Below are positions 5,422-28,373 of a DNA stretch of 35,750 nt, piece by piece. The position numbers and the translations under genes were made by a program. Each line of letters begins with the position of its first letter. Position 1 is the stretch's first letter. The stretch spans positions 78,839 through 114,588 of IMG/VR virus record IMGVR_UViG_3300044614_000224, one strand, 5' to 3'. The notes beneath the pieces are model-generated. The model did no database searches and was not told where the DNA came from. It saw nothing but the letters and a program-made list of their open reading frames with translations. Source of the stretch: a virus. Lineage: Duplodnaviria; Heunggongvirae; Uroviricota; Caudoviricetes.

Positions 5422-6177
5422 ATGGAATATCCATTTATATCATGTAAATGTATAACTTATGGTAGAGTGTCCACGCTTGAGGAGAGTATTGAATCTTTCC
5501 TCAAGCAGGACTACCCTGCAGATAAGTGTGAGCTTATAATAGTGAACGACTATCCTTTACAAACTCTTGTATACGATCATCCACAAATTAAGATAGTTAA
5601 CCTAGATAAAACTTTTGACACCATTGGTGAGAAAGAAAACTTTGCTACAGAATTATGCCAGGGAGATATAATATGTCAATGGGATGATGATGATGTAGCT
5701 TTACCAAATCACTTACAAAATGTGGCTAAATACATGACTGATAAGGTGAACATCCTTCACTGGGAAACAGGAGTGTTATGTCACATTACAGGTATTGAAC
5801 AAGTTGGTTGGATAGGTAACTCTGGTATTGTGTTTAGAAAGTCAGCTTGGAAAGCTATAGGAGGACATCCTCTTCAAAATGCTGGATATGATATGACATT
5901 CATTGAAGCAATCAATGCATATGGAGGAAGACTATTTGCTAAACCTCCTAAGGAAGAAGCAAGTTGGTTCTATATGTGGGGTGGTAGAGGTTATCACATG
6001 AGTGGAGAAGGTACTGACCATCCTGGAAAGCTCAACGCTATACAAAGACATAGTGCTTACATTGAATCACAAAGAGTTATAGGAAGAATTCCTACAGGAG
6101 ATGTACATTTAGCTCCCAATTGGAAAAATGATTATTCACAAATGTTAAAAAATTATATTAATGATACATCTAGATAA
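5422..6177 (+). CDS. Glycosyltransferase family 2
   Basis: ISCKCITYGR, ESFLKQDYP, ELIIVND, IGEKEN, QWDDDD (DxD). Confidence 0.85.
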   Translation: MEYPFISCKCITYGRVSTLEESIESFLKQDYPADKCELIIVNDYPLQTLVYDHPQIKIVNLDKTFDTIGEKENFATELCQGDIICQWDDDDVALPNHLQNVAKYMTDKVNILHWETGVLCHITGIEQVGWIGNSGIVFRKSAWKAIGGHPLQNAGYDMTFIEAINAYGGRLFAKPPKEEASWFYMWGGRGYHMSGEGTDHPGKLNAIQRHSAYIESQRVIGRIPTGDVHLAPNWKNDYSQMLKNYINDTSR

Positions 6178-6640
6178 AACAGCTATAATTGGTAAAAATG
6201 TTATTATAGAAGATGATGTTTATATAGGTCCTTATTGTATTATAGGAATGCCTCCTGAATGGAAAGGGAGAGAAAATGAAGATAAAGGTGTTTTAATTAA
6301 AAAAGGATCAAGACTGACAGGACTTGTTACAGTTGATTCTGGAGCAGATAAACAAACAATAATAGGTGAGAATTGCTATCTTATGAAACATTCACATGTT
6401 GGACATGATGCAACCCTAGAAAATAATGTAACACTATCCTGTGGAGCAAAGATAGGAGGTCATTCTATTATTGGAGAATACACAAATATTGGACTGAATG
6501 CTGTAATTCATCAAAAGATATCTATACCAAGAGGTTGTATGATTGGAGCTAGTGCGTTTGTTGGAAAGAAATCACTATTAAAACCAAATTATAAATATGC
6601 TGGAGTTCCAGTTAAAGAAATAGGGAAAAATGAACGCTAG
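6161..6640 (+). CDS. Hexapeptide-repeat (left-handed beta-helix) acyltransferase, LpxA/NeuD-like
   Basis: IGKNVIIEDDVYIGPYCIIG and HSHVGHDATLENNVTLSCGAKIGGHSIIG repeats; C-terminal AGVPVK. Confidence 0.85.
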   Translation: MIHLDKTAIIGKNVIIEDDVYIGPYCIIGMPPEWKGRENEDKGVLIKKGSRLTGLVTVDSGADKQTIIGENCYLMKHSHVGHDATLENNVTLSCGAKIGGHSIIGEYTNIGLNAVIHQKISIPRGCMIGASAFVGKKSLLKPNYKYAGVPVKEIGKNER

Positions 6641-7262
6641 GATAACTGTTAGTCTACCTTGTTTTGGTAGACCTTTAAGAACAAAAAGGTCTATTGAATG
6701 CATTATTAATCAAAACATTAATAACTGGGAAGCATTTATTATGGGCGATTGTTGTCCACATTTTCAAGAACTAATAGATAGTGGCTATCTTGAAACTATA
6801 AAACAAGAACAAGCACTTAAAGGAAACATCATCCATTATTTTAATGCTGAAGTTAATGGAGGAGGTTGTGGATATAAGCTTACAAACTATGCTATTCAAA
6901 ATGCTACAGGAAAATATTTTATATTTTATGCTAATGACGATATCATTTTTGAAGATCATTTTAGCAATTATTTAGAAATAGAAAACACAGACTTAGATTA
7001 TATGTTTTTTAATTCTTGGATAGATCCTATTGATAAAGCTAGAGATTCAACAATTGCTCCATCTCAGATAGGTCATAGTGAGATAATATTAACAACAGAG
7101 CTAGCAAAACAATTACCAGAACATTTACCAACATATGGACATGATTGGGAATTTATAAATGCTATGTTAAAACAAGGAAAAGGCGAAAAATCAAAAAGTA
7201 ACACTCTATCTTATAGAGTCATGCATGTACCAAGTTTTGGAACAAAAGATGAGATAAACTAA
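6630..7262 (+). CDS. Glycosyltransferase family 2
   Basis: ITVSLPCFGR, NQNINNWEAFIMGDCC, AIQNATGKYFIFYANDD, YGHDW. Confidence 0.8.
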   Translation: MNARITVSLPCFGRPLRTKRSIECIINQNINNWEAFIMGDCCPHFQELIDSGYLETIKQEQALKGNIIHYFNAEVNGGGCGYKLTNYAIQNATGKYFIFYANDDIIFEDHFSNYLEIENTDLDYMFFNSWIDPIDKARDSTIAPSQIGHSEIILTTELAKQLPEHLPTYGHDWEFINAMLKQGKGEKSKSNTLSYRVMHVPSFGTKDEIN

Positions 7263-7297: not shown

Positions 7298-7437
7298 TAT
7301 TTTGATAATTTCTTACCAGTCATAGGAGCCATAGGGCTCTTACCTTTATTTCTAGTATTATCTGATTCCTTCATATAAGGCTTGTTAGGCTTAGGGTTTT
7401 TAACCTTAGGAGCTAAACGTGGTTTACCTGATTTCAT
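7297..7437 (-). CDS. 46-aa Lys/Pro-rich protein, not in the ORF track
   Basis: MKSGKPRLAPKVKNPKPNKPYMKESDNTRNKGKSPMAPMTGKKLSK; TAATG overlap with the upstream gene; ends at the terminator. Confidence 0.7.
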   Translation of the reverse strand: MKSGKPRLAPKVKNPKPNKPYMKESDNTRNKGKSPMAPMTGKKLSK

Positions 7438-7865
7438 TAGCAACCATATTTACATTTACCACCCATTTTCTTTTTAGCAACAGGCTTTTTAAACTTGCTA
7501 CCAAGAACAGAAGCTTTGTCTAAAGACTTAGCCATGCTATCAGCACGCTTATCTCTATCAGCTTTCTTAATCATCTTACCTGGTTTCATTTCACTAGGAA
7601 CCATTTTACCAGCTTGTGCTTTTTTAACACTCTTACCGTATTTAGCAGGAGCAGCTTTAGCAGCTTTCTTTTCAGCTCTAGCTTCTTGACGCTCTTCACG
7701 ATTAGCTACTCTTACAGCTTTTTTATAATCACGTTCAGCCACTCTAGCTTCTTTGCGTTCAGCACGATCAGCACCTGATGTAGTTGCAGCACAACCACCA
7801 CGGTACCCACCTTTTTTTATAGGAGCTCCAAATTGAGCTTTTGCAATTTTTTTAACCTTTGCCAT
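7437..7865 (-). CDS. Small basic protein (KAQxG / KxGG motif family)
   Basis: MAKVKKIAKAQFG, KKAQAGK, KKMGGK; very Lys/Ala/Arg rich. Confidence 0.75.
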   Translation of the reverse strand: MAKVKKIAKAQFGAPIKKGGYRGGCAATTSGADRAERKEARVAERDYKKAVRVANREERQEARAEKKAAKAAPAKYGKSVKKAQAGKMVPSEMKPGKMIKKADRDKRADSMAKSLDKASVLGSKFKKPVAKKKMGGKCKYGC

Positions 7866-7883
7866 TTTTATAATTTTAAATTG

Positions 7884-8414
7884 TTAGCATTTCCATTTAC
7901 GCAAAGACTTATTAATCCTACTGTTAGGGTCGTTTGCTGTCTTAGAACTTGTGAGTTTCTTTTTCATACCTGACATCCTAGCACAGAATGATTTCTTTCT
8001 AGGACCACCTTCAGGTTGAGGAGCTTTAAGACCAGGCTTACCTGGATTAGCTCTATTATATGAGGCTCTTCCCTTAGCGTTTAAACCACCTGCAGGATTC
8101 TTACCTTCTTTTCTTTGCCATGCTGGTGTAGAACCACCATTCTTTTGTTTCTTTGGTCTATTTTCTCTACCTTCTCTAACACCTTCAATCTCTTGCCAAT
8201 TATCAAAAACACTAGCGTTACCTCCTTTTACACCTCTTTTATATCCACTTCTATATAGTGCTGAATCTATAGAACTAGGTTTTTTACCACTTGGTACAGG
8301 TCTATCTATATATTTATATTTTGTAGGAGTGGTACGTACAGGATCTATAATAGGTTTTTTAACTCTAGTATTATCAACTTTACTACCACCTTGAGCTTTC
8401 TTAATCCTAGCCAT
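7884..8414 (-). CDS. Small basic protein with a conserved C-terminal phage domain (DUF6321-like from memory)
   Basis: MARIKKAQGG, QKNGGS; C-terminal AWQRKEGKNPAGGLNAKGRASYN...SFCARM...NSRINKSLRKWKC. Confidence 0.78.
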   Translation of the reverse strand: MARIKKAQGGSKVDNTRVKKPIIDPVRTTPTKYKYIDRPVPSGKKPSSIDSALYRSGYKRGVKGGNASVFDNWQEIEGVREGRENRPKKQKNGGSTPAWQRKEGKNPAGGLNAKGRASYNRANPGKPGLKAPQPEGGPRKKSFCARMSGMKKKLTSSKTANDPNSRINKSLRKWKC

Positions 8415-8416
8415 GT

Positions 8417-8815
8417 CTATTTCTTTTTACCTTTGTACTTATAATCAGGGTTGTCTTTATGCCACTTCTTTGTAGAAGCAACACCCTGTTTAACAGTTTT
8501 TGCTCTACCAATCTTAGTGAGATTAATTGTATCCCATTTACCTTTATCTTTAGTAGGGTGGTTTACAACTATATCTCCAGGTTTAGCTTTAGCTGTTTTC
8601 TTTGTGGCTTTATAAACTACATGTTTTTCTCCACCAGCTGTAACCTTCACCTTACCACCATCTTTTAATGTAGAGCCTTTAAACTCTCCCTTCTTTTTAA
8701 CAAGAGGACCATTAGGAACAGGAGTGATTTTACCACCAGCTCTAAGAACTCCCTTACCTACATAAGCTTCTGCTTTCTGTGGGTTATACACCTTGGTCTT
8801 AGGAATTCTAGGCAT
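8417..8815 (-). CDS. Small basic protein
   Basis: Lys-rich; LRAGGKI and LKDGGKV motifs; tight gene packing. Confidence 0.75.
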   Translation of the reverse strand: MPRIPKTKVYNPQKAEAYVGKGVLRAGGKITPVPNGPLVKKKGEFKGSTLKDGGKVKVTAGGEKHVVYKATKKTAKAKPGDIVVNHPTKDKGKWDTINLTKIGRAKTVKQGVASTKKWHKDNPDYKYKGKKK

Positions 8816-8816
8816 G

Positions 8817-16637: not shown

Positions 16638-16937
16638 TTACCACTTTGGAGCTTCTTCTTTAAACTCATCACCTTCTTTCTTCTTAGCTGGAGCTGGTTT
16701 AGCTGCTACTTCTTTTTCCTTGATAACAACTGTCTTACCGCCACCAGCTTGTTGAGCTTGTTGGTTAGAGTTGGTAATGTTAATCACTGGAGCTGGTGCA
16801 GCTGCTGGAGCTTCTTTCTCATCACCACCTGTTAACTTGGTTGTGAACCAACCACCTACACCTAATGTAACTGTGCTTACTAAGCCAATTAAAATGTTTT
16901 TTATAGAGGTGCCACCACCTGCTTGTTCTTCTGACAT
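16638..16937 (-). CDS. Single-TM protein with an Ala/Pro-rich linker
   Basis: ILIGLVSTVTLGVGGWF TM; APAAAPAP and AAKPAPAKK segments. Confidence 0.7.
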   Translation of the reverse strand: MSEEQAGGGTSIKNILIGLVSTVTLGVGGWFTTKLTGGDEKEAPAAAPAPVINITNSNQQAQQAGGGKTVVIKEKEVAAKPAPAKKKEGDEFKEEAPKW

Positions 16938-16941
16938 GTTA

Positions 16942-17319
16942 TTAGTGTTTAATAGTTATAGATCTTTTATATTCTTTCCCTTTGATGTCAATTAATTCAA
17001 GTGTGTAATCACCAGAATTAACATCTGAGTAGTCTAATGTTTTGATAACCAATGTATTATCAGCTGTGAAGCCTGTGCTCTTTTTAACATCTCCGTTCAA
17101 ATCAATTAACCTTATAGAGTATTTAGCTCCTGGTGTAAGGTTCATTGTTACATCCACCTTGCTGCTCACTAGAGCTGTAGATAGATTTGTAATAGCTGTA
17201 GCTGTAGACTCCTTACCTAGGTCAATAACTTGAGGCATTGGTACATCCACCTTTGTACAAGCAATCACTGTTACAATAATTAGTAAATAGATTCCTAGTA
17301 ATACTCTTAACTCTTTCAT
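16942..17319 (-). CDS. Lipoprotein consisting of a T9SS C-terminal-domain-like module
   Basis: Lipobox VIA|C; YSIRLIDLNGDVKK, LDYSDVNSGDYTLEL and C-terminal KRSITIKH resemble the type A CTD pattern (I.D..G..V / D.S....G.Y.L / K...K). Confidence 0.6.
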   Translation of the reverse strand: MKELRVLLGIYLLIIVTVIACTKVDVPMPQVIDLGKESTATAITNLSTALVSSKVDVTMNLTPGAKYSIRLIDLNGDVKKSTGFTADNTLVIKTLDYSDVNSGDYTLELIDIKGKEYKRSITIKH

Positions 17320-19016
17320 TAGAAATTATTATAGCCTGTTAATTTAATAGTTGTTGTGTTTAGTTTTACACCTAGCTGATTACCCTTGTTATCAGAAGCA
17401 TCTAAGTTAGATGTAATCTTGATAGCTGAGTTGATATCTAGTCCACTCTTAAGTGTAGAGAACACCAGCTTGAAAGGAGTGAGATCTTTTCCTGTATATG
17501 GAGTTTTTAATTCTCTATCTACAGCACCAAACTTAATACGTCCATCATGGTTGTTTACAAACACTATCCATGTAGGAACATCACATTTGATAGATTCAAA
17601 CTTCACCTTGGTTGGATCATATACAAACTCAAATTGTAAGCCTGATAGATTAGCTCCATTAGTATTTATATTCACTGGAATAGTAAACTCATCACTGGTA
17701 AGTGTTAGGTTGTTTAAGCTAACATCTACATCAGGTAGATTATCATTAGGTGTATTAACAAACGTAGAGAATGTAGTTACTGTCTGAGCTTGTGTTCTAA
17801 TTGAACTGTGTGATCTATTAATGTCTCCAGGGACTAAGTAACAGATGCTCAATGGTTTAGCTACATTACTTGTTCTGAAATTCACTGTATACTTATCTGT
17901 AACAGCTTTCCAAGATGTAGAAGATAAGCTATCATACGTAGCACTTAGAAATGCAGGAAGGTTTGTTAATGTCTGACCAGAAATAGGTCTAAAGATTGTA
18001 TCAGCTCCTACAGCCTGTGCAAATAATGCTGTTACATCTCCACCATCTAATGTTCTATTGTTGTTAACATCAGCTGCCATATACCCAATACCAGAAGCAA
18101 TATTGCTGTTGGTAAATGTACCATCCAAGTTTTGCTTCATGAATTCTGAAACAGCAGCTGTATAGTCACTTACAGTGATTGCTTTATTAAGCATTGCTGG
18201 AATACTATCTGAAACCACGTTTACATAAATCTTATAAGCTGTATTAGGAAGCAACTCACTACCAAGAGTGAATGAACCATTAGCAGCTGGTGTAACTGTA
18301 GCTCTTAATATGTTTGTAGCTGAGTCAACAAATACCAATCTAGGTTGCTGTCCTCCTGTTAGACCAGTGCTTAACTTTAGTTCCCCATTAACAAGAGCAT
18401 TAGCCACTGGTGTTAGCCCTACCCAAGCTGAGTTAGGTTTAGGCATTCTTGTTTCATAATATGTTCCTCCATAATTACCACTGAATGCTTGAGCAAAGTT
18501 GTAATAGATAGAGTCATATGCAAAACCTGCAGCCACTTGCTCCACTCTAAATCTAATGTTACAGAATGTACCATCTACTAAGTCTGCACTTGATACAGCC
18601 CATATACGATTGATAGCTTTACCACTAGTTGCACTATATCCATAGCTTAGATTGTTAGAGTTAGTTTGACTAGACTCTGTTGTATTCTGTGCAGTTCTGT
18701 TTAGGAAGTAGCCAGGGTAGTATTGATTCTGATAAGACGTCTGTGCTCCTTGAGGAACAGCATTACCAAATGTTAAGTCTATCATATTGATAGCTGACAT
18801 CTGGTGTTGGAAGTCTAGGTAGAAAGAGCGTACAGGTTTACCTGCAGCTGCTTTATATACTAACGACACTTGTACAGTGTCACCTTTCTTAATAGCTCCA
18901 CCATTGATGTTGGTACCAGCAACATTAGGAATTAGCTTTAATTCAGGATTTTGTCCATAAGATGATGTCACAAATATTGTAAAAAGTGTGACAAAAAATA
19001 ATAGTTTTTTTATCAT
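17319..19016 (-). CDS. Secreted cohesin-like / dockerin-like / cohesin protein
   Basis: Signal peptide (SSYG|QN); dockerin Ca-loop AADVNNNRTLDGGD and GDINRS; C-terminal cohesin pattern FTIPVNI...LSGLQFEFVYDPTKVKF; N-terminal GDTVQVSL...FYLDFQH cohesin-like domain. Confidence 0.7.
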   Translation of the reverse strand: MIKKLLFFVTLFTIFVTSSYGQNPELKLIPNVAGTNINGGAIKKGDTVQVSLVYKAAAGKPVRSFYLDFQHQMSAINMIDLTFGNAVPQGAQTSYQNQYYPGYFLNRTAQNTTESSQTNSNNLSYGYSATSGKAINRIWAVSSADLVDGTFCNIRFRVEQVAAGFAYDSIYYNFAQAFSGNYGGTYYETRMPKPNSAWVGLTPVANALVNGELKLSTGLTGGQQPRLVFVDSATNILRATVTPAANGSFTLGSELLPNTAYKIYVNVVSDSIPAMLNKAITVSDYTAAVSEFMKQNLDGTFTNSNIASGIGYMAADVNNNRTLDGGDVTALFAQAVGADTIFRPISGQTLTNLPAFLSATYDSLSSTSWKAVTDKYTVNFRTSNVAKPLSICYLVPGDINRSHSSIRTQAQTVTTFSTFVNTPNDNLPDVDVSLNNLTLTSDEFTIPVNINTNGANLSGLQFEFVYDPTKVKFESIKCDVPTWIVFVNNHDGRIKFGAVDRELKTPYTGKDLTPFKLVFSTLKSGLDINSAIKITSNLDASDNKGNQLGVKLNTTTIKLTGYNNF

Positions 19017-19657
19017 AACAGTTTGTTTACCAATGAGTTAGAAGCTTTCTTTAAAGCAGAACTTAAGTTTTGTTGGTTAAACTTACCGCCTTCATCTATC
19101 AATAAAGTGGACATACTTGTTTCATCCGCAGACTCCTCAACAGTAGCTTTTTTAATAACTTTACCATCTCTAATAATTGATCCAGATAATCTAATAACTA
19201 CTGATTCCTTTTCTTTGTGGAATACAGATAGTTGTGAACTGTTCTTTAACACATCCAGATACACAATGTCTGCTGTAATTTGTAAACTAGCAGAAGGGTC
19301 AATAGAATAATCCTTATCCTGTAACACTTCTTCTATCACATTCTTTACACCAAACTCTAGGTTTCTGTTACCAGCTAACACCCCTACCTTCACTTTATTA
19401 GTGATAGCACCAATGCTTATTTTGTTAGACTGTTCGTAGTAGATGTTACCTGGACTGTTCTTAAACCTACCATCAAATTTCCATGTAAGTTGATTGACTA
19501 TGTTTGTAATCTTCTCATGCTGGTTTGTAAACTCCAGATATAAGAAGAATAACTGTGTGCCTAAAGCACAGAAAATAAAAATCATCACACCATAGAGAAA
19601 AACTAAGAATAGTTTTTGCCCTATGTATGTGCCAATGCTTGCTAATTTTGTCCCCAT
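19013..19657 (-). CDS. Membrane-anchored CsgG-like paralogue
   Basis: N-terminal TM; FGVKNVIEEVL and KFNQQNLSSALKKA align with LGVANISMEYL and KFNQSTISIATKKA of 14989..15705. Confidence 0.55.
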   Translation of the reverse strand: MGTKLASIGTYIGQKLFLVFLYGVMIFIFCALGTQLFFLYLEFTNQHEKITNIVNQLTWKFDGRFKNSPGNIYYEQSNKISIGAITNKVKVGVLAGNRNLEFGVKNVIEEVLQDKDYSIDPSASLQITADIVYLDVLKNSSQLSVFHKEKESVVIRLSGSIIRDGKVIKKATVEESADETSMSTLLIDEGGKFNQQNLSSALKKASNSLVNKLL

Positions 19658-21787: not shown

Positions 21788-21994
21788 TTATTTCTTCAGA
21801 CCATACTTAATCCACTTGTACCAGATACGTTCATGGATAAAGTATTGTATAGGTTTGTATATAAGTTCAGCCACCCCAAAGGTAGCCCCTATCTTAATGG
21901 ATCCGCTAATCCCCCACATAAGCAAGAAGCCTATCAAGGTGCTGACAATCCTGTAACTTATAGTTTTTGCAACATGTCGTTTGACTAATGGCAT
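21788..21994 (-). CDS. DUF2061-like small membrane protein
   Basis: RHVAKTISYRIVST...YFIHERIW pattern. Start moved to ATG 21994 because the track's TTG (22006) lies inside a promoter -7 box. Confidence 0.7.
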   Translation of the reverse strand: MPLVKRHVAKTISYRIVSTLIGFLLMWGISGSIKIGATFGVAELIYKPIQYFIHERIWYKWIKYGLKK

Positions 21995-25400: not shown

Positions 25401-25859
25401 GGATGTAAGTTTTGGACTAAAGAAGGGTGGCAAGAAGTGATTAACTATCTTGTAAGTCAAGGATACAAAGTGTACAATGTATCTAAGGAAAGAAATCCAT
25501 TTGATAACTGTGTACAGATAGAAGATACATCAATGGATAACACCATCAATGTGATTTGGAACAGTAAGTTCTTTATAGGACTTAGTTCAGGATTAAGCTG
25601 GTTAGCTTGGATGATGGGTAAACAAGTGGTGATGATTTCTAACTTCACCAAAGCAGACCACGAGTTTCAATCCAATTGTATTAGAATTACAGATGAGACT
25701 GTATGCCATGGATGTTGGAACAATAAGAATTTTAAGTTTGATAGAGGAGACTGGAACTGGTGCCCTATCTGGAAGGGTTATGACAAACAGTTTGAATGCC
25801 ATAACACCATCACAGCAGATAAAGTTATAGCTTCCCTTCAGCCTTTAATTGTTCTCTAA
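22473..25859 (+). CDS. Four-domain fusion: SAM methyltransferase + GT-A (GT8-like) + GT4-like GT-B + TibC/AAH-type autotransporter heptosyltransferase
   Basis: VLDVGPGQG and ILGDVLEH (MTase); MYVDSD (GT-A); LFLAPHLSTGGMP, KNQ, ADIFMFNSTWECNPLVLREA (GT4); DSESLGDTIAW, FFIGLSSGLSWLAW and CHGC-x15-C-x11-C (AAH/TibC). Confidence 0.82.
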   Translation: MPNSYTYFKQEVKEWFRDNVPANTKVLDVGPGQGTYGKLLFELGYAIDAVEVWDPYISEYKLWEYYGNVHIADIREFDWSEYEFIILGDVLEHLTAEEGQKLITDIAMARKQYLVAIPYMMEQDGEEYGNTYETHLQADLTKDVMAERYPTLDLLYANDYYGYYVSKKIADKAFVLYATEAYYDIVTACVKSLTTFSQYPVFVYMLNSDKKVPRATTIRWNCDIDPIEYNTKEQFYINRTDDRVYNILIQRPLIVIDCLKYADTVMYVDSDSIATPFVDRVFNYPVSEYPLFTSSIYDQMFLNGKGDLEKPICDLLDIQRGRYIQTGYFLANRDCLPFLQEWASLCTDSRVMSDFKLYAPFHEETLANATLWKNDYNKSLPLIYTNASLDVLENIDKYEFGKEHWEWFKLPDSKHELFFYHGEKRPDVMYKMISRLKGNKRVLFLAPHLSTGGMPAFLLKRIQEIKDHVEIYVVEYQCHSLDFVVQRNAIKEIVGSNFTTLYENKMELFDIIDSWKPDIIHLDEPAERYNREMITKLYDTNRSYKIVETFHDVAFKPEEKIFQSEAYAFCTPYHLNKFTNLQGYRKVIEFPLEDKRPSILGKIEAKNKLGFAPFKTSVVNVGLWTPGKNQAEGIEIAKKYPHMDFYFVGNQAGNFKDYWEPLMEFLPKNVYVLGEKSNVEDYLTAADIFMFNSTWECNPLVLREAISYALPVVARNLPQYEDMFTKYLLPIDSNLDEVCDEYRNGIVHYRIPDVTFKQDYIDFYNHVDPISLQSQDVTITQHYIVNPFLEITGVSDSDFKIEFYDEQDVCHYSSVIKTNQWVKLNRSYYTKWRNKIWQDGNLIHDYTLDYTDKTVFIYFDSESLGDTIAWMPYCLEFKKKHNCHVVVSTYKNFLFEKAYPELEFVAPGTPVNAYGEYIIGWRYNTDQEPELCNTIPLQKAATNILGLEYKEIRPRFAFTPTTIEDRYVTIATNSTTGCKFWTKEGWQEVINYLVSQGYKVYNVSKERNPFDNCVQIEDTSMDNTINVIWNSKFFIGLSSGLSWLAWMMGKQVVMISNFTKADHEFQSNCIRITDETVCHGCWNNKNFKFDRGDWNWCPIWKGYDKQFECHNTITADKVIASLQPLIVL

Positions 25860-26211
25860 TTTGTGTAGCAGATATATCATGTATATCTTGAGGTGGTACA
25901 TGTTCTACAACATCATAACCAATACCTCTACCAATATTAACAGATTCAATATCAGGTATAATCATGAGTCTAACTCTTCCTTCCTCAATGAGATCCATTA
26001 ATTCTTCTGTTAGATTCATCATAACTTGCCATGCAGACCAAGGATTCTTCTCATCAGGAGTAACATCTCTTACACAGAGAAGAACATTCTTACCTTCATT
26101 TAATTTCTGATCAATCAACCATCTGTGACCAGGATGCCATGGTTGCCATCTTCCTATGAACATAGCATAACCACTTCCATTACCATTACCTTTTGCTAGA
26201 ATATTCTGCAT
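25825..26211 (-). CDS. Minimal HxGH nucleotidyltransferase (cytidylyltransferase-like superfamily)
   Basis: FIGRWQPWHPGH and C-terminal DISATQIR. Confidence 0.8.
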   Translation of the reverse strand: MQNILAKGNGNGSGYAMFIGRWQPWHPGHRWLIDQKLNEGKNVLLCVRDVTPDEKNPWSAWQVMMNLTEELMDLIEEGRVRLMIIPDIESVNIGRGIGYDVVEHVPPQDIHDISATQIREQLKAEGKL

Positions 26212-26633
26212 ACATATTTGATTTTATCTACACTGTCTTCAATAGAAGTGTTAGATGTATTAATAATTAAATCTACATCATCTTTCTGTGGTGGTTCAAA
26301 GTCTGCCACTTTAAATTGATCTCTACCTCTATCTTCTTCATATGTGAGATAGATCCATTTAACATCTCTGGTTAGACTGCTTAGGTACTCTCTAGCTTCT
26401 TCATAAGGATACACTAGTGATAACACTATGTTATAGTTTCTTGCTTTATTCAAATAGTAAGCAATGTCACTAGCTCTGTTTAAGTTTTTAATCCTACCTT
26501 CTTTACTGTAGTCTTTGTTCTTAAACATATCTCTTAGTTCATCACCATCTATGTGGTGAAATCCCTCTGCTATAAATTTTTTAGCAAGAGTTGTCTTGCC
26601 TGATGCAGGCTGTCCAAATAATACTATTATCAT
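26196..26633 (-). CDS. cysC: Adenylylsulfate (APS) kinase
   Basis: P-loop GQPASGKTT, IDGDELR, YSKEGRIKNL, VLSLVYPYEEAR, FEPP. Confidence 0.82.
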   Translation of the reverse strand: MIIVLFGQPASGKTTLAKKFIAEGFHHIDGDELRDMFKNKDYSKEGRIKNLNRASDIAYYLNKARNYNIVLSLVYPYEEAREYLSSLTRDVKWIYLTYEEDRGRDQFKVADFEPPQKDDVDLIINTSNTSIEDSVDKIKYVCRIF

Positions 26634-27448
26634 TTTGAATATCTAAATTGTTGAAAGAACCATTGATAGTTGTCCCATATCCAACCTGTAACATCCTTAC
26701 CTAATAAAGCTTTTGCTCTAGAAGGAACAGGTTCTAATCTAGTACGAATAGTGTGGTCACCAAAACTTCCATACACTTCATCATCTTCCTTAGTAACTTG
26801 TTCTATATTATCCCAATCATGTTGGTAATAAGGAATGCCTAGGTATTGATATATTCTTTGCATCTCTGTATCAGGGTAAAGACATAAGTCTTCAAACTTA
26901 ACAAACAATACATGTTTGTCTATTCCTAGTCTGAACATCTCTTGTAATCTTTCTATAGCTAATCCAACAGGTTGACTCTGTGCCCAGATGTCTATACGTT
27001 TAGGAACTGTTGTCCCAGTCATCTGTGCCCAGTTGAGAATAGCATTAGCCTTATCAGGATTCTTTCTGTAGTTGTTCTCCATAGAAGCAAAGACATCACG
27101 TAGGTCTCTCACCATACATATAATCTTTGGCTCTGGGTGAATGAAGTTTAGGAAGTCATAATGGATTCCCCATCCTCTAGATTTGTCTACAACATATTTC
27201 TTATCTGTAATAGCATTGTAATAAGCAATCATTCCTTCTTTGCAGAATGCTTGGAATGCAGCTTTCATCACTTGTGGATCTTGAGCTTGGAACTCAGGGC
27301 TGTCTGTATAGTTTCCTCTAGCAGCAAACACCAATTCAAGCACACCACTAGTTGGTGTAGCATAGATGTCTGGGTTTTGTGCTAATATGTTTTGTAACAA
27401 TGTTGAACCTGCTCTTGGTAAAGAGCTTTGATAGAATATATTCTCCAT
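26630..27448 (-). CDS. PAPS-dependent sulfotransferase
   Basis: 5'-PSB motif SLPRAGSTLL, DKSR, 3'-PB motif MVRDLRDVFAS, VKFEDL..P..EMQRIYQYLG. Confidence 0.88.
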   Translation of the reverse strand: MENIFYQSSLPRAGSTLLQNILAQNPDIYATPTSGVLELVFAARGNYTDSPEFQAQDPQVMKAAFQAFCKEGMIAYYNAITDKKYVVDKSRGWGIHYDFLNFIHPEPKIICMVRDLRDVFASMENNYRKNPDKANAILNWAQMTGTTVPKRIDIWAQSQPVGLAIERLQEMFRLGIDKHVLFVKFEDLCLYPDTEMQRIYQYLGIPYYQHDWDNIEQVTKEDDEVYGSFGDHTIRTRLEPVPSRAKALLGKDVTGWIWDNYQWFFQQFRYSK

Positions 27449-27449
27449 A

Positions 27450-28325
27450 TTAAGATTTTAAAGATGCTATGATTTGATCTACATTAAATATTTCTTTCTC
27501 ATTGTTATATGGAAACTCTAATAGGTTCCCTGATATATCAAACTTCTGCAAGTATGCGTTGCGTAACTCAGGCTTCTTAGTGAATGGATTACATACAATG
27601 TTATCATGTACATCATATCCAAACACCTCAGGCTTATTACACACCCATAGCACTGTAGAAGGTTTATTCATAGCAGCAGCTGCATGATGACCAAAGCTAT
27701 CCATTAACAATCTCTTACTACTAAGTTCTATAAGAACAGCAAGTGCTCTGAAGTTATCTGTAACAGGAGTGGTGAAGTCATAACCAATCTGATCTTCTCT
27801 TCTTATGTGTACAATGTTATAATCATTCTTAAATTCATGTATAACATTCTCCACTACATAACTAGGAATGTCTCTAGCCCATGAGTATTTCAACTCTTGT
27901 CCTGGAGCACCACCATTTGTTTGTAATAATAAAATAGGTCTGTCAGACGTAAACTTCTGACCAAAGAACTTACGTTCTCTATCTGTAAGATAGAGCTTAG
28001 GAGTAACATCTTCAGGTGTAGGAACACCAAACATTCTTGTCCATGTATGGCTTAAATGTTCATTCTGCATAAGATGTTCTGTCTGTACATATGGATCATG
28101 TGCAAACACCTTAAACTCTTTACCCTCTATAAAATCTTCATAGAAGTATTGTGTCATACCAAAAGAAAATGAGCGATACACAAAGGGGTTGTTTATAAAC
28201 ACCTCTGGGTAACCGCTCATTACAATTAATTGACTATCAGGATATTGTTTGTGAATTGCTTCACAAACAGATGTAGCAAGTATACACTTACCTATACCAC
28301 CATTGATTTGGAAAATGATATTCAT
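27450..28325 (-). CDS. GT9-like (GT-B) glycosyltransferase
   Basis: NGGIGKCILAT...IHKQYPDSQLIV, EVFINNP, LLMDSFGHHAAAAMNKPSTVLW. Confidence 0.7.
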   Translation of the reverse strand: MNIIFQINGGIGKCILATSVCEAIHKQYPDSQLIVMSGYPEVFINNPFVYRSFSFGMTQYFYEDFIEGKEFKVFAHDPYVQTEHLMQNEHLSHTWTRMFGVPTPEDVTPKLYLTDRERKFFGQKFTSDRPILLLQTNGGAPGQELKYSWARDIPSYVVENVIHEFKNDYNIVHIRREDQIGYDFTTPVTDNFRALAVLIELSSKRLLMDSFGHHAAAAMNKPSTVLWVCNKPEVFGYDVHDNIVCNPFTKKPELRNAYLQKFDISGNLLEFPYNNEKEIFNVDQIIASLKS

Positions 28326-28341
28326 AATTTAGCTTTACAAG

Positions 28342-28373
28342 CAAAGGTATACATTGCTTATAATAAAACCAAA
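28342..28373 (-). promoter_or_regulatory. Bacteroidota sigma-A-type promoter heading the GT9-sulfotransferase-cysC-HxGH operon
   Basis: TTTG-N20-TACCTTTG, 16 nt before the ATG at 28325. Confidence 0.8.

Follow-up and report, generated by a model that had tools for sequence, protein, structure and literature searches.

The window analysed here is a stretch of 35,750 nt from a tailed virus (Caudoviricetes; positions 78,839 to 114,588 of IMG/VR record IMGVR_UViG_3300044614_000224), and makes up the last part of that record, which is complete (114,588 bases) and carries direct terminal repeats. Its minus strand carries four consecutive open reading frames (ORFs) specifying a glycosyltransferase (GT), a sulfotransferase, a kinase resembling adenosine 5'-phosphosulfate (APS) kinases, and a 128 amino acid HxGH nucleotidyltransferase which, together with its relatives, we refer to as NT (Table 1). 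A preliminary description made from the letters alone had proposed a single-promoter sulfation operon in which the small HxGH protein supplies APS, and all four ORFs were indeed located, behind one Bacteroidota-type promoter recognized by its consensus. The junctions, said to overlap, do so on both sides of the kinase, by 4 nt (ATGA) with the sulfotransferase and by 16 nt with NT, while GT and sulfotransferase are separated by a 1-nt gap. The 3' end of NT overlaps convergently, by 35 nt, with an ORF of 1128 codons on the plus strand.

The promoter lies 16 nt upstream of the GT start, and several related phages have one of this type ahead of their GT as well. Within the window the pattern was found six times against 1.25 expected, a number reached in one of 100 shuffles, and it stands before other genes too, including one for a DUF2061 protein. 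A scan of the window for sigma-70 promoters gave 14 against 16.8 expected, which is not above chance. Since the Bacteroidota pattern is enriched and placed before several genes, the host is probably a member of the Bacteroidota. The RNR sequence yielded no taxonomic placement of the phage.

The structure model of GT (predicted local distance difference test score, pLDDT, 89.9) was matched by Foldseek to 3tov (E-value 6.5e-12) and 1psw (WaaF, 1e-10), and also to WaaC and TibC. This bears out the GT9-like assignment, though GT has no Pfam match (PF01075 included) and found none in a sequence search of the PDB; PF01075 occurs on 45% of the members of a related Atlas cluster. BLASTP between GT and the TibC-like domain of the 1128 amino acid neighbour was not significant. 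The sulfotransferase passes the PF13469 cut-off and has both motifs for binding 3'-phosphoadenosine 5'-phosphosulfate (PAPS), the 5'-phosphosulfate-binding PRAGSTLL and the 3'-phosphate-binding RDLRDVFAS. Among proteins of solved structure it is closest to tyrosylprotein sulfotransferases (TPST; E-value 2.5e-5), whose catalytic Glu it lacks. The kinase keeps the P-loop, DGDxxR, YSxxGRxxN, P-Y and FEPP, that is, most APS-site positions, and its best PDB matches are APS kinases. It passes the PF01583 cut-off and falls below that of TIGR00455 (34.5 against 138.7 bits). The preliminary call of an APS kinase is thus sustained at the family level, with the qualification that it overlooked the missing DPKGLY lid.

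NT belongs to a family of 4445 matches annotated merely as cytidyltransferase-like or as nicotinamide mononucleotide (NMN) adenylyltransferase (NMNAT). Among 133 NT sequences GRxQPxHxGH, R48, P57, GR94-95, G98-Y99 and ISATxIR are invariant, and the window protein, which starts with GRWQPWHPGH, retains every one of these residues. Its model (pLDDT 86.9) has the HxGH nucleotidyltransferase fold, with NadM-type/archaeal NMNAT as the best match (Z 9.4, root mean square deviation 3.0, 110 residues aligned), compared with Z 7.4, 3.5 and 115 residues for the Sat-type ATP sulfurylase 1v47. HHalign gave 98.8% with NMNAT and 5.6% with Sat, the register of the latter being too weak for residue mapping, so that the likeness of GRGxGY to GRDHAG is only positional. 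The Sat model PF01747 found no match in NT nor in the whole phage genome and, since the QxRN motif is absent, NT falls outside the Sat family. Nor is it a regular NMNAT, because it scores 27-31 bits against NMNAT family models with cut-offs of 127, 181 and about 400 (127-409), has invariants of its own (Arg48 and GRGxGY), and has suffered a 17-residue deletion that removes the NMN-binding helix following the DI motif, which would carry the nicotinamide-stacking Trp. By these comparisons NT is a putative NadM-derived family distinct from Sat. The description of the protein as NMNAT-like therefore holds in sequence, profile and structure, and that of a small relative of Sat holds for the HxGH fold, but NT is no shortened Sat. 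In a tree the window NT falls within a 100/100 clade holding the proteins of cysDN slots, cysH operons and fusions discussed below.

A kinase gene lies upstream of NT, or is fused to it, in 146 of the 160 loci examined (78 of 80 viral and 68 of 80 cellular), and both viral loci without one are at contig ends. The fused form corresponds to PHROG 10255 in Xylella phages Sano and Salvo. In Patescibacteria and one Saprospiraceae genome NT is fused to a full-length CysC, which passed TIGR00455 where tested. In Marinimicrobia the kinase preceding NT is sometimes lidless and sometimes full-length, which speaks for an unchanged function of the trimmed form. GT was found in 26 of the 80 viral loci, and DUF2061 stands close to NT in 49 of them, mostly immediately adjacent. 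The preliminary description had pointed to a DUF2061-like gene in the window, and PF09834 identifies it; it has its own promoter (22035-22004) and lies about 3.8 kb from NT, and is a displaced member of the NT cassette. DUF2061 also occurs immediately upstream of one cysC-cysD-cysN locus (L252).

Several further arrangements were observed. The Patescibacteria fusions (326-329 amino acids) lie beside sulfotransferase-like genes (L214:7413-8402, L230:5243-6229, L218:7440-8420). In the cultured phage Sano, gp33 (L081:6555-8324), annotated as hypothetical, is sulfotransferase-like (PF17784, E-value 4e-4) and lies two genes upstream of the kinase-NT fusion, the intervening gene being NADAR. In three Marinoscillum-like genomes (L183, L186, L189) the 3.5 kb upstream of NT contain no kinase gene, and Marinisomatales genome G222 (contigs C17, C18 and C22) has NT in four copies, including one tandem pair.

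Among 50 cellular carriers of NT, CysD was found in two and Sat in four. A control scan of 52 genomes of one Flavobacteriales family, scored throughout for NT, CysD and APS kinase, revealed NT in 12, CysD in 33 and both in none (Fisher p 2.4e-7). A clear APS kinase was identified in 43 of these genomes, 11 of which carry NT and the other 32 CysD. The exchange takes place at a single slot, between sprA-gcvH-tonB and deoC-cysQ-flippase-sulfotransferases, which holds either cysC-cysD-cysN or cysC-NT, both states being seen in both local gene arrangements. NadD is retained in all 12 NT-carrying genomes, and a Marine Group III (MGIII) archaeon has a true NMNAT plus NT; hence NT fills no gap in NAD synthesis. 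NT and Sat also failed to coincide in Marinisomatales (15 and 77 genomes, overlap 0, p 1e-5), a result to which we give low weight. The NT of G055, which shares 73% identity with SAR11 copies and lies on a 2.9-kb contig, probably entered its bin by contamination; its removal leaves the result unchanged.

NT is also found in other sulfur operons. Three Nitrospiraceae have NT after the genes for Rrf2, sulfite reductase and thioredoxin-dependent APS reductase, in that order; these genomes carry Sat elsewhere. In 101 Pelagibacteraceae (SAR11) genomes, scored for NT, aprA and Sat, NT is present in 46, comprising 35 of the 37 with aprA and 11 of the other 64 (p 3.7e-15), and Sat in five. In eight of 12 loci read, NT immediately precedes aprM-aprB, the position that sat takes in other sulfur oxidisers; AprM had no Pfam match and was assigned by position alone. 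A TenA/PqqC-like gene is often adjacent to the NT-aprM-aprB-aprA cluster (L243:7965-11588; L279-L289). SAR11 has been described as having aprBA and cysC without sat or cysDN (PMC5069961), and aprAB as being under strong purifying selection within "incomplete" pathways (PMC12636525).

Our main argument for an APS-forming activity is that APS is the one metabolite common to CysC, APS reductase and AprBA. The exchange with cysDN in place, the cysH operon, the SAR11 apr operon, the full-length CysC fusions and the retention of NadD all favour the earlier suggestion that the HxGH protein supplies APS. From the genes, folds, motifs, linkage and distribution above we infer the following activities. 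NT would descend from a NadM-type NMN adenylyltransferase, with an origin independent of Sat and CysDN, keeping the ATP site (HxGH, SxT, GR) and losing the NMN-binding helix, and it probably has a small anion site formed by the invariant Arg48 together with the GRGxGY loop. It would make APS out of ATP and sulfate; the trimmed kinase would turn APS into PAPS, pulling the unfavourable first step, and the co-transcribed sulfotransferase would move the sulfate onto an acceptor. Since the phage genome has one sulfotransferase and no CysH-family gene was found in it, this is the single evident consumer of PAPS; searches of the same genome for Sat, CysD, Nampt, GmhA and PfkB were also negative. It is highly likely that NT is an ATP sulfurylase of a third, minimal kind. 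That it forms a pair with the kinase feeding PAPS to the sulfotransferase is likely, and the explanation as a whole, from minimal ATP sulfurylase to sulfated acceptor, is about equally so.

The acceptor is the least certain step. It may be a glycan built on virion fibre proteins by GT and the 1128 amino acid enzyme, an ORF with a weak methyltransferase-like domain, a GT4 domain and a C-terminal Aah/TibC-type protein O-heptosyltransferase domain, which may lay the glycan that is sulfated. Beyond the promoter lies a fibre of 1895 amino acids, 414 of them Gly, a candidate for glycosylation and sulfation and possibly a substrate of the TibC-like enzyme. A repeat fibre or tail sheath/tube gene occurs within about 6 kb in 22 of 31 close loci having a GT or sulfotransferase. 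A virion fibre glycan is thus the target we favour, tentatively and at slightly less than even chances.

Table 1. Features of the window, with positions counted from its first nucleotide
Feature	Position	Strand	Evidence
Bacteroidota-type promoter, TTTG-N20-TACCTTTG	28342..28373	-	consensus match only
GT-B glycosyltransferase, GT9 fold, heptosyltransferase-like, 291 aa	27450..28325	-	structure model; phrog_8954
Putative PAPS-dependent sulfotransferase, 272 aa	26630..27448	-	PF13469, E 3e-20, 73.7 bits (cut-off 27)
Trimmed (lidless) putative APS kinase, 145 aa	26196..26633	-	PF01583, 35.6 bits (cut-off 21.1)
NT, candidate minimal ATP sulfurylase, NadM-derived HxGH nucleotidyltransferase, 128 aa	25825..26211	-	invariant motifs and contexts
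Multi-domain glycosyltransferase, 1128 aa	22473..25859	+	TIGR04414, 248 bits (cut-off 200); GT4 domain
DUF2061 small membrane protein	21788..21994	-	PF09834, E 6e-15
Gly/Ser/Asn-rich repeat fibre with C-terminal S74 chaperone, 1895 aa	29257..34944	-	PF13884; tail-fibre PHROG

Elsewhere in the window, two GT2-like ORFs around an LpxA-like hexapeptide-repeat ORF (5422-7262, plus strand), read from their motifs, may be further glycan-modifying genes. A minus-strand cluster at 13745-19657 of secreted or lipoprotein-like ORFs (414, 238, 565 and 214 amino acids), none of which matched a PHROG, resembles an envelope module of Bacteroidota. At 7437-10137, also on the minus strand, six successive small ORFs are very rich in Lys and Arg and share KAQxG and GGK-type motifs; their products are possibly DNA-condensing or core proteins.

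A number of observations weigh against an ATP sulfurylase serving sulfation. NT is nearer to NMNAT and to phosphopantetheine adenylyltransferase (PPAT) than to Sat, by the Z-scores and HHalign values given above, and lacks the sulfate motif of Sat (QxRNxxHxxH). The phage kinase has lost the segment DPKGLY..FTGI, the lid which in canonical APS kinases contacts APS. A sulfotransferase of this family lies within 6 kb in just 29 of 49 close viral loci, about 40% being without. Some genomes carry NT together with Sat or CysD. The Flavobacteriales NTs form one clade, so that the p-value reflects few independent events, and most of the genomes used are incomplete metagenome-assembled or single-amplified ones; the exclusion in Marinisomatales is confounded by genome streamlining, all carriers being of 0.7-1.1 Mb. 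Finally, the SAR11 NTs form a sub-branch separate from the window protein.

Other activities may be considered for the pair. That the best sequence and structure matches of NT are archaeal NMNAT and NadM, and that the fusion in phage Sano adjoins a NADAR gene, would suit an NMN or nicotinic acid mononucleotide (NaMN) adenylyltransferase acting with a nicotinamide-riboside kinase in NadR-like NAD salvage. We regard this as very improbable in view of the sub-cut-off family scores, the deleted helix with its stacking Trp, the NadD or NMNAT kept by carriers and the phage genome in which no Nampt was found; moreover, the cellular partners of NT are full-length CysC, APS reductase and AprBA, and Sano also has its sulfotransferase-like gene two upstream of the fusion. 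A short NT and a lidless kinase might instead have drifted to another donor, such as the 3'-phospho-NDP-phosphoramidate (NDP, nucleoside diphosphate) of Campylobacter Cj1415, to be transferred by the sulfotransferase fold. The missing lid, the absence of the TPST Glu and the top NCBIfam model of the kinase, PRK05541 (44 bits against a cut-off of 127), which presumably includes Cj1415, point this way. Yet in Marinimicrobia the CysC encoded upstream of the same NT is lidless in some cases and full-length in others, the short NT precedes aprMBA in SAR11, DUF2061 also sits just upstream of cysC-cysD-cysN, and most APS-site motifs of the kinase are intact, so that another donor is improbable. Scarcely credible is a sugar-phosphate adenylyltransferase of the HldC/RfaE type making ADP-heptose for two GT9-fold enzymes: HldC shares the HxGH superfamily with NT, and NT is co-transcribed with one GT9-fold gene and adjoins a TibC-like domain, but HldC ranks low among the fold matches (Z 6.3), neither GmhA nor a PfkB kinase was found in the phage genome, GT accompanies far fewer viral loci than the kinase does (26 against 78 of 80), and the cellular contexts of NT are sulfur genes.

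A different purpose for the same enzymes is a real possibility, if a somewhat unlikely one; this overlaps our preferred explanation on the enzyme and differs in target only. The pathway could serve host sulfate assimilation, as phage cysC is usually read (PMC10914622; bioRxiv 2021.01.05.425418), or the acceptor could be protein tyrosines, host envelope glycans or a small molecule. The host-type promoter would suggest expression before the late phase, and the nearest solved sulfotransferases act on protein tyrosines. On the other hand, no cysH was found in the complete phage genome, GT and sulfotransferase share one transcript, and fibre or tail sheath/tube genes are close by in most of the loci with a GT or sulfotransferase.

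As a minimal ATP sulfurylase, NT would represent a novel family of enzymes catalysing a known reaction. To our knowledge, Sat and CysDN are the only ATP sulfurylase classes that annotation takes into account, and a genome with neither is therefore counted as incapable of sulfate activation. NT relatives seem to replace these enzymes in many ocean bacteria, including SAR11. We consider it fairly likely that they constitute a third independent class, of about 120 residues and NMNAT-derived, widespread in aquatic phages and streamlined ocean microbes, partnering AprBA in SAR11 and used by phages to sulfate their own virion glycoproteins. If so, SAR11 AprBA gains its "missing" partner, allowing ATP recovery from sulfite, and the family fills pathway holes of abundant marine lineages. 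The retention of AprBA and CysC "without sat" in SAR11 (PMC5069961, PMC12636525) would thereby be accounted for. Phage cysC, instead of aiding assimilation, would then appear as one of two halves of a PAPS synthase that phages encode for sulfation.

In our literature search no description of the NT family was found, subscription papers being largely outside its coverage. Freshwater and marine phages carry cysC, which is expressed in situ, and the auxiliary metabolic gene papers concerned treat it as serving assimilation and, in the passages searched, mention no partner nucleotidyltransferase or sulfotransferase (PMC10914622; bioRxiv 2021.01.05.425418). PHROG 10255, which corresponds to the window kinase and NT fused, is labelled "kinase" without an assigned reaction. 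With NadM-type/archaeal NMNAT (TIGR01527; 1f9a, 1ej2, 2qjo) NT shares the GRxQPxHxGH start, the NPF loop and the PDI and SxT motifs; it is some 40 residues shorter, having lost the NMN-binding and C-terminal helices, has the invariant Arg48 where NMNAT has Gly and a new GRGxGY loop, and is linked to sulfur rather than NAD genes. With Sat (PF01747; 1v47, 1r6x) it has in common the superfamily fold, the GR ending strand 4, the ISxT motif, the gene contexts (cysC, cysH, aprMBA) and, as proposed, the reaction, whereas it lacks the QxRN motif and the PUA-like domain and is one third of the size of Sat (about 400 amino acids). CysD/CysN (TIGR02039), with which NT swaps at one chromosomal slot beside cysC in Flavobacteriales, has an unrelated PP-loop fold and needs the CysN GTPase, whereas NT is a single chain of 128 amino acids. 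The kinase-NT fusions resemble the bifunctional PAPS synthases (human PAPSS, Aquifex Sat-CysC), which likewise join a kinase and a sulfate-activating domain in one chain; the Sat domain of PAPSS alone has about 400 amino acids, whereas the whole kinase-NT fusions have 243-329.

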